64,000 nt of DNA, from assembly GCF_056746865.1 (NCBI RefSeq), contig NZ_CM163382.1. One strand, given 5' to 3'. Positions 468 to 47,297 of this stretch are shown here, in pieces. The translations under genes and the position numbers were made by a program. How positions within the stretch are numbered: position 1 is the stretch's first letter; each line of letters opens with the position of its first letter. The notes beneath the pieces are model-generated. The model did no database searches, was not told the DNA's origin, and worked only from the letters and a program-made list of their open reading frames with translations.

Positions 468-2075
468 TTATTCGATAGAGACGTTTTCGAAGTGATGTTT
501 GCCTAATGGATCAACCACATAGCCTTTAACTTCTTTGCGTACCGGTTCAAACACGGTGGAGTGAGCGATGATCAGTGCCGGAGCCTGATCGTGCATCACC
601 ACCTGCGCTTGCTTGTACAGTTCAACGCGTTTGTTATGGTCGTCGGTAGCACGCGCCGGTTGAATCAGATCTTCAAACGGTTTGTAGCACCATTTTGAGT
701 AGTTGGAGCCTTGTTCAGAGGCGGCGCAGCTGAACAGGGTGGCGAAGAAGTTATCCGGATCCCCATTATCGCCAGTCCAGCCCATCATTACCGTCTGGTG
801 CTCGCCATCTTTCGCACGCTTGAGGTACTCACCCCATTCGTAGGTGACAATTTTGGCCTGCACGCCGACTTTCGCCCAGTCTGCCTGAATCATCTCCGCC
901 ATGCGGCGAGCGTTCGGGTTATACGGACGTTGTACCGGCATCGCCCACAGGTCGATGGAGAAACCTTTTTCCAGACCCGCTTCTTTCAGCAAGGCTTTCG
1001 CTTTTTCAGGATCGTAGGTGTAGTCCTGAACGTCGTCGTTATAGCCCCACATGGTTGGCGGGATCAGGTTTTTCGCTGCCACGCCCGCGCCCTGATAAAC
1101 CGCTTTGATGATAGCGTCTTTGTTCACCGCGTAGGTCAGAGCCTGGCGAACTTTCACGTCATCAAGTGGTTTTTTCTGCACGTTATATGAAAGATAGCCG
1201 ACGTTAAGCCCCGGCATTTCCATCAGATTGATGGATTTATCCTGCTTCATGCGAGCGATATCTGCCGGGTTCGGGTACGGCATCACCTGGCATTCATTCT
1301 TCTGCAATTTCGCGTAACGCACGGAAGCATCAGGGGTAATAGAGAAAACCAGCGTATCGATCTGCGGTTTGGTGCCCCAGTAGCCATCAAACGCTTTGTA
1401 GCGGATACGGGAATCTTTTTGGTACTGCTGTAACTGGAACGGACCGGTGCCGATTGGGTTGAGGTCCAGTTTTTCCGGTGTACCGGCTTTCATCATCGCG
1501 TCAGCATATTCTTTTGACAGAATAGAGGCGAAGTCCATTGCCAGGTCAGCGAGGAACGGCGCTTCCGGGCGAGTCAGCACAAACTGAACGGTGTTGTCGT
1601 CCACCTTTTTCACTTCGCTGATCAGCTCCGGCAAGCCCATGCCTTCAAAGTATTCGTAGCTGCCGCCAGAAACTTTATGGTACGGGTTTTGCGCGTTTTT
1701 CTGACGATCGAACGAGAACACCACGTCATCGGCGTTCAGTTCGCGCGTCGGTTTGAATTCTTTGTTGTCGTGCCACTTCACACCTTTACGCAGATGGAAG
1801 GTATAGGTTTTACCGTCTTCGCTGACTTCCCACTTTTCAGCGAGGCCCGGGATTACTTCGGTGGTGCCGATTTTAAATTCAACCAGGCGGTTATAAAGCG
1901 GCACGGAAGAGGCGTCATAGGTGGTACCGGAGGTAAACAGCTGCGGGTTAAACCCTTCCGGAGATCCTTCTGAGCAATAAACCAGAGTTTTAGCCTGAAC
2001 ACTTGCTGCGACGGTCATAGCCACCAGGCTGAGACCAAGCTTCAGCATCCCTGACTTTTTCAAGGAAATACGCAT
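468..2075 (-). CDS. dppA: Periplasmic dipeptide-binding protein DppA (535 aa)
   Basis: ORF translation MRISLKKSGMLKLGLSLVAMTVAASVQAKTLVYCSEGSPEGFNPQLF... with signal peptide; family 5 SBP; sits upstream of dppB. Confidence 0.97.
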   Translation of the reverse strand: MRISLKKSGMLKLGLSLVAMTVAASVQAKTLVYCSEGSPEGFNPQLFTSGTTYDASSVPLYNRLVEFKIGTTEVIPGLAEKWEVSEDGKTYTFHLRKGVKWHDNKEFKPTRELNADDVVFSFDRQKNAQNPYHKVSGGSYEYFEGMGLPELISEVKKVDDNTVQFVLTRPEAPFLADLAMDFASILSKEYADAMMKAGTPEKLDLNPIGTGPFQLQQYQKDSRIRYKAFDGYWGTKPQIDTLVFSITPDASVRYAKLQKNECQVMPYPNPADIARMKQDKSINLMEMPGLNVGYLSYNVQKKPLDDVKVRQALTYAVNKDAIIKAVYQGAGVAAKNLIPPTMWGYNDDVQDYTYDPEKAKALLKEAGLEKGFSIDLWAMPVQRPYNPNARRMAEMIQADWAKVGVQAKIVTYEWGEYLKRAKDGEHQTVMMGWTGDNGDPDNFFATLFSCAASEQGSNYSKWCYKPFEDLIQPARATDDHNKRVELYKQAQVVMHDQAPALIIAHSTVFEPVRKEVKGYVVDPLGKHHFENVSIE

Positions 2076-2080
2076 TATTC

Positions 2081-2108
2081 TGCTCCAATTGTGATGTTTG
2101 TTGTTTTA
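2081..2108 (-). promoter_or_regulatory. dppA ribosome-binding site (GGAGCA) plus CA-rich leader element (UAAAACAACAAACAUCACAAUU), matching the GcvB sRNA target region described for dppA
   Basis: Reverse complement of 2081..2108 read directly; GcvB targeting of CA-rich dppA leader is established knowledge. Confidence 0.45.
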
Positions 2109-2642
2109 ACCCTTTGCAGTGGGTTGTCGCTGCCTGACCTTTTTTGTTTTTTGCCCGGTCGGGTCAACGTTATGAGGTGGGGATGCCGTACTAATTAACA
2201 TCAGTGTAACAGTGCGGATCCTCCATAAAATGCCCCTCGTGACCTACAATCTGTCAACAGAATGTGAAAACGTCAATACAGCCAACCGGGATTTACACCA
2301 ACGGTGAGAATCCACAAACAAAGATTAAAAAAACTTCAAACAGCTATTTGCAGCAGAGAAATTTGTGCTACTCCAACATGACCAGAACAATCAGCTTAAT
2401 ATTTAGCAACAATTGGTGATTAAGTTTTATGCATTTAGTGAAAAAAATCTGAGGAAAAGGTGGATATCTGAGCGATTAATACCATGAACGCTAAAACGCA
2501 CAGCGGAAAATGCCAGCGCCAGTCATAAGTAACGCAAAAAAAGATTTAAGCAAATATAAAAAAAGACAATGGTTTCTGTCACAAATCCGTTAATGGATAG
2601 TGAGATATGGGGCGCAATTTTGGCAGGGAAATGTGTGGTGTG

Positions 2643-2711: not shown

Positions 2712-3466
<755 letters not shown>

Positions 3467-3570
3467 ATCAGCATACTTGTCCTTAGCCTTCTGCAGTGAC
3501 AGCTGGTAGTACAGCGTGCTTCTGGCCAGCCCTGCAGCCTTTAACAGGTCAGACTGGCAGTGTCCGCACC

Positions 3571-4092
3571 TCAGGCTCCGGATGACTTTCGTTTTTTCTC
3601 CAGCTCCTGGCGCTTTTTTTCCAGGAGATGCTCCTGCATGGCTTTCAGATATGCATTTTCTGCGCGAAGATAACGCAGCTCATTCTTCATCTCTTCCGGC
3701 GTCATGTTTGCCTCGTTTTCATGGGTATCATCAGAACGGGTCATACTTTTCTCCTTCCTGCGCCTGATAAAGGCCTCATTACCAGATTTGCGGTAGCCTT
3801 TTATCCAGTTTTTAACCGTGTTGTGGCTGGGAATGTTAAACCGGGCAGCTACCCGGGGTAGAGACTCAGAATGCCCGAGAGCATAAAGAACCACGCAAAG
3901 TTTATCTTCAGGAGAATAGCTACGCTTGTGTCTGCAATCCAGTGCCCGAGGACCGTGAAGAAGAAAAAGATTAATCCAGTGTGAGAGGCTGGTGTGAGAA
4001 AGTTGAAAGAGTTTTGCCGTAGAAATGATGCCTGCATGACCAGCCAGGTAATGATTTACAGCGGCAAGTTTTACTTCAAATGAATGTTTCAT
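3571..4092 (-). CDS. insJ: IS150 transposase OrfA (InsJ), HTH DNA-binding protein, 173 aa
   Basis: Translation MKHSFEVKLAAVNHYLAGHAGIISTAKLFQLSHTSLSHWINLF...; ATG at complement 4090..4092 (ORF track starts 3 codons earlier at GTG). Confidence 0.9.
   Translation of the reverse strand: MKHSFEVKLAAVNHYLAGHAGIISTAKLFQLSHTSLSHWINLFLLHGPRALDCRHKRSYSPEDKLCVVLYALGHSESLPRVAARFNIPSHNTVKNWIKGYRKSGNEAFIRRRKEKSMTRSDDTHENEANMTPEEMKNELRYLRAENAYLKAMQEHLLEKKRQELEKKRKSSGA
3613..3620 (-). other. Programmed -1 ribosomal frameshift slippery heptamer A-AAA-AAG of IS150
   Basis: cttttttt on + strand = AAAAAAAG on coding strand near 3' end of insJ; IS150 frameshifting is established knowledge. Confidence 0.6.
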
Positions 4093-4143
4093 AAACTGCA
4101 CCTTCAGATGTCAGATTATGTCCAACATTTGGGGTGCAGTTCA

Positions 4144-4165
4144 TGGCGCGTCTTATCAGGCCTAC
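4144..4165. repeat. Right half of REP unit split by IS150
   Basis: tggcgcgtcttatcaggcctac; see 2694..2711. Confidence 0.6.
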
Positions 4166-4221
4166 GTCGAGTCGAACCTCCCTGCCCCCGGAGGTTCTCA
4201 TCCTCATGAGCTACAAATGCA

Positions 4222-4252
4222 AAAAAGCCTGCTCGCTGAGCAGGCATTTCGA
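4222..4252 (-). terminator. Rho-independent terminator of proK
   Basis: aaaaaagcctgctcgctgagcaggcatttcg: GC stem-loop followed by U-run on minus strand immediately 3' of tRNA. Confidence 0.75.
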
Positions 4253-4255
4253 ATT

Positions 4256-4332
<77 letters not shown>

Positions 4333-15408: not shown

Positions 15409-15529
15409 ACTTTTATCCACTTTATTGCTGTTTACGGTCCTGATGACAGGACCGTTTTCCAACCGATTAATCATAAATATGAAAAATAATTGTTGCATCA
15501 CCCGCCAATGCGTGGCTTAATGCACATCA

Positions 15530-15688
15530 ACGGTTTGACGTACAGACCATTAAAGCAGTGTAGTAAGGCAAGTCCCTTCAAGAGTTATCGTTGATACCCC
15601 TCGTAGTGCACATTCCTTTAACGCTTCAAAATCTGTAAAGCACGCCATATCGCCGAAAGGCACACTTAATTATTAAAGGTAATACACT
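15530..15688 (+). promoter_or_regulatory. cspA long 5' untranslated leader (cold-box / RNA thermosensor region); 5' boundary approximate
   Basis: About 160 nt AT-rich leader upstream of cspA ATG; cspA leader function is established knowledge, TSS not determined here. Confidence 0.55.
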
Positions 15689-15901
15689 ATGTCCGGTAAA
15701 ATGACTGGTATCGTAAAATGGTTCAACGCTGACAAAGGCTTCGGCTTCATCACTCCTGACGATGGCTCTAAAGACGTGTTCGTACACTTCTCTGCTATCC
15801 AGAACGATGGTTACAAATCTCTGGACGAAGGTCAGAAAGTGTCCTTCACCATCGAAAGCGGCGCTAAAGGCCCGGCAGCTGGCAACGTAACCAGCCTGTA
15901 A
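15689..15901 (+). CDS. cspA: Major cold shock protein CspA, 70 aa
   Basis: Translation [70 protein letters not shown]. Confidence 0.98.
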
Positions 15902-15928
15902 TCTCTGCTTAAAAGCACAGAATCTAAG

Positions 15929-15958
15929 ATCCCTGCCATTTGGCGGGGATTTTTTTAT
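15929..15958 (+). terminator. cspA rho-independent terminator
   Basis: atccctgccatttggcggggattttttt. Confidence 0.8.
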
Positions 15959-16088: not shown

Positions 16089-16241
16089 TTACTCTTTCAA
16101 TTTGCAGGCTAAAAACGCCGCCAGCTCATAACTCTCCTGTTTAATATGCAATTCACACAGTGAATCTCTTATCATCCAGGTGAAAAATAAAAGCGTGAAA
16201 CAAATCACTATTAAAGAAAGTAATCTATATTTCTGCGGCAT
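16089..16241 (-). CDS. hokA: Type I toxin HokA (Hok/Gef family membrane peptide), 50 aa
   Basis: Translation MPQKYRLLSLIVICFTLLFFTWMIRDSLCELHIKQESYELAAFLACKLKE; intact frame. Confidence 0.9.
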   Translation of the reverse strand: MPQKYRLLSLIVICFTLLFFTWMIRDSLCELHIKQESYELAAFLACKLKE

Positions 16242-16301
16242 TCCCAGCCCCCTGTGTTGATTTCCAACGAGTAAGAGGCTAACCTTATGGTGTCTATGCA
16301 T
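16089..16301 (-). CDS. mokA: MokA, in-frame upstream reading frame coupled to hokA translation, 70 aa
   Basis: ATG at complement 16299..16301; frame continuous into hokA; hok/mok/sok architecture is established knowledge. Confidence 0.6.
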   Translation of the reverse strand: MHRHHKVSLLLVGNQHRGLGMPQKYRLLSLIVICFTLLFFTWMIRDSLCELHIKQESYELAAFLACKLKE

Positions 16302-16521
16302 AGAGGGGCCTCACTTTGATTTATAGTCAGGTGGGGCTTTTCTCTGTCTGCCTTTCGGTGAATACCTGAGACAAACAGTCTCAAGCACCCGCAGCTATTC
16401 TAGCTTAATAAGTTCGTTTCTTCTCCTTGATATAATCCTAAAAAAATCTCATAAAATTAATATATGAGACAATCTTTATTCAGCAGAAGATTATTAAAGG
16501 TTGCTCTATTATTTAGCGATA

Positions 16522-45896: not shown

Positions 45897-47297
45897 ATGA
45901 CCTCTACACCGATTACTACCGCTGATATCGCTAAAGGTAAAATTGACGATGCGTTATCTGTACGGGAAAAAATAGGCTACGGCCTGGGTGACGCAGGCGG
46001 CACCGTAATAACTTGCCTGATCATGAACTTTCTCACCTTTTTCTACACCGACGTTTTTGGCTTAACTCCGGCGCTGGTCGGCACGCTGTTTATTGCACTG
46101 CGCGTGTTTGATGCCATCTCCGACCCGGTGATGGGCGTCATTGCCGACCGGACGCAAAGTCACTGGGGGCGCTTTCGTCCGTGGCAGTTATGGATTGCCA
46201 TTCCCATCGGCATTATCGGCATCCTGACGTTCACCGTGCCAGATGCCAGCATGGGAGTAAAAATCGCCTGGGCGTTCGGCACTTACCTGCTCCTTTCAGT
46301 CGGTTATACCGCCATCAACGTGCCGTACTGCGCGCTGATCAACACCATGACCACCCGCCACAATGAAGTGATCTCCTGCCAGTCCTGGCGATTCGTTCTC
46401 TGCGGTGTAGCGGGATTTCTGGTTTCGGTAGGCTTACCGTGGATGGTGGATCTCTTCGGTCAGGGTAATGCCGCGCGCGGCTATCAACTGGGCGTCGGCG
46501 TGCTGTGCGCCATCGCTGTGGTGATGTTCCTGTGCTGTTTCTTCTGGGTTCGTGAACGGGTACCACTCTCCACAATGGGGAAATTTACCCTGCGCGAACA
46601 TCTTGCCGGGCTGCGAAACAACGACCAACTGCTGCTGATGCTGGTCATGTCTTTCCTGCTGATTAACGTCTTTAATATTCGCGGCGGTGGGTATATGTAC
46701 TTCATTACCTACGTCTTACAAGGCAGTACGGGCTACACGTCGCTGTTCTTCACTATGGTCACCTTCGCCTCCATTATCGGCTCGGTGATTGTCAGCCCGT
46801 TAACGCGACGTTTCGATACCGTCAAAATTTACTACTACACCAACCTGCTCCTCGCTGCGCTGGCGGTGTTGATGTGGTTCCTGCCCTCTGGCCCGGCTTA
46901 TCAAACGCTGTGGCTGGCGGTGATCCTCGGTAATGGCGTGATTCTTGGCTTCACATTGCCACTGCACTTCTCATTGATGGCCTTTGCCGATGACTACGGC
47001 GAGTGGAAAACCCGCGTACGTTCTTCCGGCATGAACTTCGCCTTCAATCTGTTTTTCATCAAGCTGGCCTGGGCCTCCAGCGCCGGGATCATCAGCCTGC
47101 TGTTTATTTTTGTCGCCTACCAGCCAGGCGTGGAAAACCAGACCGCCAGTTCGCTTGGCGGGATCACAGCAATGGAAACATTGCTGCCTGCGCTATTCCA
47201 CCTGCTGCTGGCGATGGCGATCCGCTTTTGCAAACTCAATAACCCTATGATGTCACGCATTGCTAGCGACCTGCGTCAGCGTCATGTACAGCCTTAA
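45897..47297 (+). CDS. Glycoside-pentoside-hexuronide (GPH) family sugar:cation symporter (MelB/YicJ-like)
   Basis: Translation [56 protein letters not shown]... 12-TM; ATG 45897 preceded by GAGGA. Confidence 0.88.

Follow-up and report, generated by a model that had tools for sequence, protein, structure and literature searches.

A C/A-rich tract at the dppA ribosome-binding site is identical to the GcvB R1 target of Escherichia coli K-12 and lies downstream of an IS1397-type insertion sequence

Sharma et al. 2007 and Pulvermacher et al. 2008 are said to be the primary mapping papers for the GcvB site in dppA. In E. coli K-12, a dppA::gfp fusion extending from -165 to codon 14 is specifically repressed 3.2-fold by GcvB, with values of 4.9-fold in an rne701 background and 1.6-fold in an hfq deletion, and Urban & Vogel (2007) concluded that the 5' UTR of dppA is where GcvB acts (PMC1807950). 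In E. coli as in Salmonella, dppA counts among the verified R1 targets; it is recovered by RIL-seq, CLASH and MAPS, and its control by GcvB contributes to dipeptide homeostasis (Miyakoshi et al., PMC9299463). In the Salmonella target, a 15-nt stretch beside the Shine-Dalgarno (SD) sequence holds four ACA motifs, and this block serves both as the GcvB target and as a translation enhancer in its own right: its deletion cut dppA-lacZ by 96%, and randomisation of the four ACAs led to a loss of up to or more than 100-fold that was uncorrelated with predicted structure (Yang et al., PMC3879156). Other R1 targets (oppA, gltI, livJ, livK, argT, sstT and yifK) resemble dppA in that the same G/U-rich seed reads a single-stranded, C/A-rich element located at the ribosome-binding site or upstream of it (PMC9299463, PMC2639303).

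Here we describe the corresponding site in a 64,000-nucleotide stretch of DNA (contig NZ_CM163382.1 of assembly GCF_056746865.1), the whole of which is referred to as the window; its relevant features are collected in Table 1. The gene neighbourhood follows the standard E. coli dppB-dppA / proK / eptB order, and RefSeq likewise annotates dppA in strain 118UI, where the locus is identical. The original prediction had placed a C/A-rich tract directly 5' of the dppA SD, and direct reading of the minus strand from 2108 to 2087 returned exactly the quoted RNA, TAAAACAACAAACATCACAATT, with A or C at 18 of its 22 bases, providing the C/A-rich element at a ribosome-binding site that is typical of GcvB R1 targets. 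The SD itself is the same in Escherichia species and Salmonella, and GCAGAATA lies between GGAG (2086-2083) and the dppA ATG (2075-2073, minus strand); the interval 2081-2108 as a whole is made up of the C/A tract, GGAG and two further bases.

Table 1. Coordinates of dppA, the elements of its leader and the upstream insertion sequence in the window.
Feature	Position	Strand	Remarks
dppA CDS, 535 aa, regulated gene	468..2075	-	NCBIfam NF043070 (DppA_dipep equivalog), 1178 bits over 1-535
dppA 5' UTR as in the published K-12 fusion, -165..-1	2076..2240	-	Fusion boundaries from PMC1807950 Table 1
dppA Shine-Dalgarno GGAG, -11..-8	2083..2086	-	Sequence reading
Paired bases of the predicted GcvB duplex, -30..-10	2085..2105	-	Reaches into the SD; -31 is the unpaired 5' base of the interval
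C/A-rich tract UAAAACAACAAACAUCACAAUU of the dppA 5' UTR	2087..2108	-	-33..-12 relative to the A of AUG; read directly
15-nt block ACAACAAACAUCACA with four ACA motifs, -29..-15	2090..2104	-	Core of both the GcvB target and the ACA enhancer of translation
IS1397-type insertion sequence, 1432 bp	2712..4143	-	Context only; IS3-family transposase (NCBIfam transpos_IS3, 300 bits); same strand as dppA

The composition of the tract is rare within the window. At least 17 A or C residues are found in just 23 of the 127,966 18-mers on both strands, two of which fall inside the dppA tract, while 15-nt windows holding four ACAs occur at only four places (six overlapping starts), the dppA block among them. 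When up to two mismatches are allowed, the 15-mer ACAACAAACATCACA (2104-2090) is present once, as against 0.14 occurrences expected. In folds of the dppA leader from -165 to +30, the 5' end of which is taken from the published fusion boundary, the tract is unpaired in both the MFE and the centroid structures, with a P(unpaired) of 0.47 for the block of four ACAs. As in the ACA enhancers silenced by GcvB at yifK and dppA (Yang, Figueroa-Bossi & Bossi 2014, PMC3879156), four ACAs within 15 nt (2104-2090, minus strand) lie in an unstructured region directly 5' of the SD, with the difference that enhancer activity was measured in Salmonella and not in E. coli. At the Rfam gathering threshold, no cis-regulatory family was detected in the dppA leader, and a consensus promoter scan returned no match near -165; the sole sigma-70 consensus match upstream of dppA is GTGACA-18-TATATT at 2553-2582 on the minus strand (10/12), approximately 480-500 nt before the ATG.

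In comparison with the K-12 site, the element is found in the same gene, at the same position relative to the SD and the AUG, and the sequence from -170 to +46 around the dppA start is 100% identical. This agreement extends across the species: of 5422 complete E. coli genomes, 5413 carry exactly the same 60 nt from -45 to +15, which are likewise unchanged in E. albertii, E. whittamii and one further Escherichia species. A degenerate-pattern scan of genome contigs for dppA leaders recovered five Escherichia-type loci only, with the tract identical in all of them; the site is invariant within Escherichia and so offers no covariation. A separate case is USHA01000015.1 (401-630 of the extracted locus), a contig of a MAG named 'uncultured Collinsella sp.', which carries an E. 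coli dppA whose leader matches perfectly only from about -76 downstream and is unrelated upstream; the MAG would seem to be contaminated or chimerically assembled at this point.

Relative to Salmonella Typhimurium, the core block is identical at 14 of 15 positions to NNNNNNTNNNTCNNN (taken from primer ppN85), and all four ACAs are kept; the single mismatch falls on the spacer base that separates the second ACA from the third, with A in the window and T in Salmonella. The Salmonella sequence obtained from the primers of Yang et al. reads GGGCAAA-[ACAACATACATCACA]-ATTGGAGCAGAAGAATG, and its farther-upstream flank has diverged from that of E. coli.

The gcvB gene itself is absent from the window, and for GcvB we used the annotated 206-nt ncRNA of K-12 (NC_000913.3, 2942696-2942901). 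Among the 5425 complete E. coli genomes with a match, 5389 have this sequence at 99% identity or more. Strain 118UI and many others match the dppA-IS-proK junction of the window (2361 nt) at 100%; coverage of the junction reaches 80% or more in 217 of the 5426 complete E. coli genomes, one of them labelled ST69. Between gcvA and ygdI of 118UI, Rfam RF00022 matches 206 nt at 199 bits, with a sequence no different from that of K-12 gcvB. A gcvB with intact R1 is hence found in the same genome as the locus by way of 118UI, given its 100% identity over the junction.

Pairing between the two RNAs was predicted by scanning all pairs of 32-nt windows with ViennaRNA duplexfold, adding opening energies derived from unpaired probabilities. 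A run of duplexfold on the full-length RNAs had been dropped, as it produced a meaningless end-to-end 'duplex' of -93.5 kcal/mol. In the windowed, accessibility-corrected scan of the dppA leader (-165 to +30) against full-length GcvB, the best interaction joined leader positions -31 to -10 with GcvB nt 62-83 in a duplex of 20 bp (6 GC, 12 AU and 2 GU), with a hybrid energy of -24.6 and a net energy of -16.2 kcal/mol. A near-equivalent duplex runs over the SD to -6, involving GcvB 57-83 with a hybrid energy of -29.5 and the same net energy of -16.2 kcal/mol. The GcvB segment engaged in the duplex is the G/U-rich GGUUGUGAUGUUGUGUUGUUG, within the region named R1 in the literature, so that the tract, in a leader identical to that of the verified K-12 target, is indeed of the kind predicted to be bound by R1, as had been proposed; stable predicted pairing is what was obtained where its absence had been named as the result that would speak against the proposal.

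Published data bound the duplex indirectly. Provided that GcvB is numbered alike in Salmonella and E. coli, the 3' limit of the predicted duplex at GcvB nt 83 is consistent with the report that positions 84-88 take no part in the pairing with dppA (PMC3879156). A sensitivity of 0.941 in PMC2639303 would imply 17 bp for the published GcvB-dppA reference duplex. The Salmonella dppA fragment is likewise predicted to pair with R1, at a net energy of -18.2. [quoted passage not shown]

Both partners of the interaction proved necessary for the prediction. Removing GcvB nt 63-90 (R1) in silico weakened the best interaction with the dppA leader to -6.4, conversion of the four dppA ACAs to UGU left a best interaction of -4.1, and deletion of the 15-nt block left one of -7.6; the stable, accessible duplex with R1 is thus gone without R1 or with mutated ACAs.

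The folding model has R1 largely paired inside GcvB, with an opening cost of 8-10 kcal/mol and a P(unpaired) of about 1e-4 for nt 65-83. R1 of GcvB is single-stranded by structure probing, and the net energy, which rests on an imperfect model of the sRNA structure, is therefore probably conservative, since the model charges this opening cost.

Complementarity between an A/C-rich leader and a G/U-rich sRNA could also arise as a by-product of base composition, carrying no regulatory meaning in this strain. In line with this possibility, 3 of 120 dinucleotide shuffles of the dppA leader reached the native energy (mean -9.7 ± 2.7), so the shuffle control is significant, but modestly and not overwhelmingly so, as the shuffles retain the A/C-rich composition. 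Moreover, when an R1 probe was run over the entire window (42,648 30-nt windows) on hybrid energies only, dppA did not stand out, with G+C-rich coding windows reaching -31; that scan is nonspecific, and hybrid energy alone is accordingly not evidence. Once accessibility is included, however, dppA ranks first among the 56 annotated translation-start regions in the window, the other 55 having a mean of -6.8 ± 2.4 and the next best lying at -13.5. The near-invariance of the site among E. coli genomes and the four-ACA layout kept in Salmonella, even though the upstream flank diverges, also speak against a compositional origin, which is contradicted by published reporter and interactome data, the identical K-12 sequence having been experimentally tested (PMC1807950, PMC9299463). 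We regard the probability of this explanation as negligible. Taken together, the modelled thermodynamics supports the reading of the tract as a GcvB R1 site, short of proof.

The second-ranked start region in this comparison is itself a predicted R1 interaction, at approximately 47227-47257 on the plus strand (net -13.5 kcal/mol, GcvB 67-93). It corresponds to -81 to -51 of a GH127 glycoside hydrolase gene (start 47308) and lies inside the upstream MFS transporter gene.

A different view of the tract is that it acts mainly as a GcvB-independent translation enhancer, through its ACAs and perhaps as an unstructured A-rich platform for S1 or 30S standby, with GcvB as a secondary overlay. The Salmonella deletion and randomisation results described above (PMC3879156) lend this weight, as do the close match of the block to its Salmonella counterpart and its unpaired state in the leader fold. 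Yet GcvB represses through the very same sequence (PMC3879156, PMC1807950, PMC9299463), and the predicted pairing needs R1, such that enhancer and sRNA target are one element. As the principal role of the tract, GcvB-independent enhancement is in our view quite unlikely, although the two roles are complementary and not exclusive.

It may also be considered whether the tract is mainly a site for the distal face of Hfq, recruiting the protein for any of several sRNAs. The distal face of Hfq binds A-R-N repeats, and the stretch AAC AAC AAA (2105-2097, minus strand) would fit three consecutive A-R-N triplets. The repression of dppA by GcvB is also weaker in an hfq deletion, but this effect is confounded, as the level of GcvB itself is down to 19% of wild type in that background (PMC1807950). 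Furthermore, uninterrupted 20-bp complementarity to R1 is unneeded for Hfq binding, and a predominant role in Hfq recruitment appears highly improbable.

With these alternatives weighed, the tract is very probably the known element through which dppA mRNA responds to GcvB, an ACA enhancer that is covered by R1 with the help of Hfq. From the present analysis, this reading draws on the sequence, its identity to K-12, the accessibility of the tract, the predicted duplex that depends on R1 and the ACAs, and a K-12-identical gcvB in a genome with the exact locus; in vivo repression, Hfq dependence and enhancer activity are taken from the literature. We infer that the same GcvB-dppA regulation operates in the source strain.

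While the element is unchanged with respect to K-12, its context differs: an IS1397-type element is inserted 636 bp 5' of the dppA ATG, and the duplicated proK 3' segment of K-12 is absent. In K-12, the proK-dppA spacer includes a duplication of approximately 190 nt comprising the proK 3' end and terminator (K-12 locus extract 2380-2620), which is present as a single copy in the window (4144-4256). The tract had originally been described as conserved in spite of an upstream IS150. Conservation is borne out by the genome survey, though near-invariance in E. coli means that its being conserved here says nothing about the insertion; the name IS150 did not hold. The IS150 label was rejected because the element shares only 49.9% nucleotide identity with K-12 IS150 (insJK, 1443 bp) and its OrfB 51% amino acid identity with InsK. 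Alignment with IS150 and the junctions shows IS150-like terminal repeats, a resemblance that may account for the misnaming; an automated repeat search of the element did not report these imperfect terminal repeats.

RefSeq names the element in the identical locus an 'IS3-like element IS1397 family transposase, programmed frameshift', and the transposase is of the frameshifted type made from two ORFs. An O157 genome with an empty site shows the target to be the loop of a REP palindrome, GCCTGATGCGACGC-TG(A/G)C-GCGTCTTATCAGGC, and the element is flanked by a 4-bp target-site duplication, TGGC, at 2708-2711 and 4144-4147. Insertion of IS1397 into REPs, or palindromic units, has been documented (PMC1525189). 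The element described here shares with IS1397 the insertion into a REP loop, the short duplication and the frameshifted IS3-family transposase, the name resting on the RefSeq family call and the REP site.

The near end of the insertion sequence is approximately 470 bp upstream of -165, and the dppA leader is therefore untouched; lying outside the leader, the element plays no part in GcvB regulation. Judging from geometry alone, transcripts reading through or directed outward from the co-oriented insertion sequence might enter the dppA promoter region, or the insertion might displace upstream regulatory DNA, either of which we consider very unlikely. If one of these were true, the proportion of dppA mRNA to GcvB would shift, and with it the tightness of dipeptide-uptake control, in the approximately 4% of E. 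coli genomes that bear the insertion.

Two further loci in the window differ from existing records. The hokA/sok toxin-antitoxin locus (16089-16390; Rfam sok, 120 bits) is uninterrupted, in contrast to K-12, where the site holds a copy of IS150 and mokA and sokA are left as pseudogenes. At 15529-15956, an Rfam cspA thermoregulator was detected (498 bits), and the RefSeq annotation of 118UI calls the CDS at 15689-15901 'cspE', which is likely a slip in the annotated gene name.

The mechanism suggested for this site follows that of the known system. The four ACAs of a single-stranded C/A tract 5' of the SD would boost initiation of dppA translation. GcvB, which would be made under nutrient-rich, glycine-replete conditions, would then pair through its G/U-rich R1, helped by Hfq, with approximately 20 nt from -30 to -10, a pairing predicted to cover the ACA enhancer together with the 5' edge of the SD. 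With both covered, 30S subunits would be unable to initiate and synthesis of DppA would fall.

The GcvB site at dppA is already known and ordinary, and nothing in the element differs from K-12. Its intact state only confirms that the standard circuit is kept in this strain and opens no new question; the practical gain is a corrected annotation, namely an IS1397-type insertion sequence in a REP in place of IS150. The dppA element itself is a model case of a single sRNA governing numerous transporters of amino acids and peptides, its G/U-rich seed masking translation enhancers rich in C and A.
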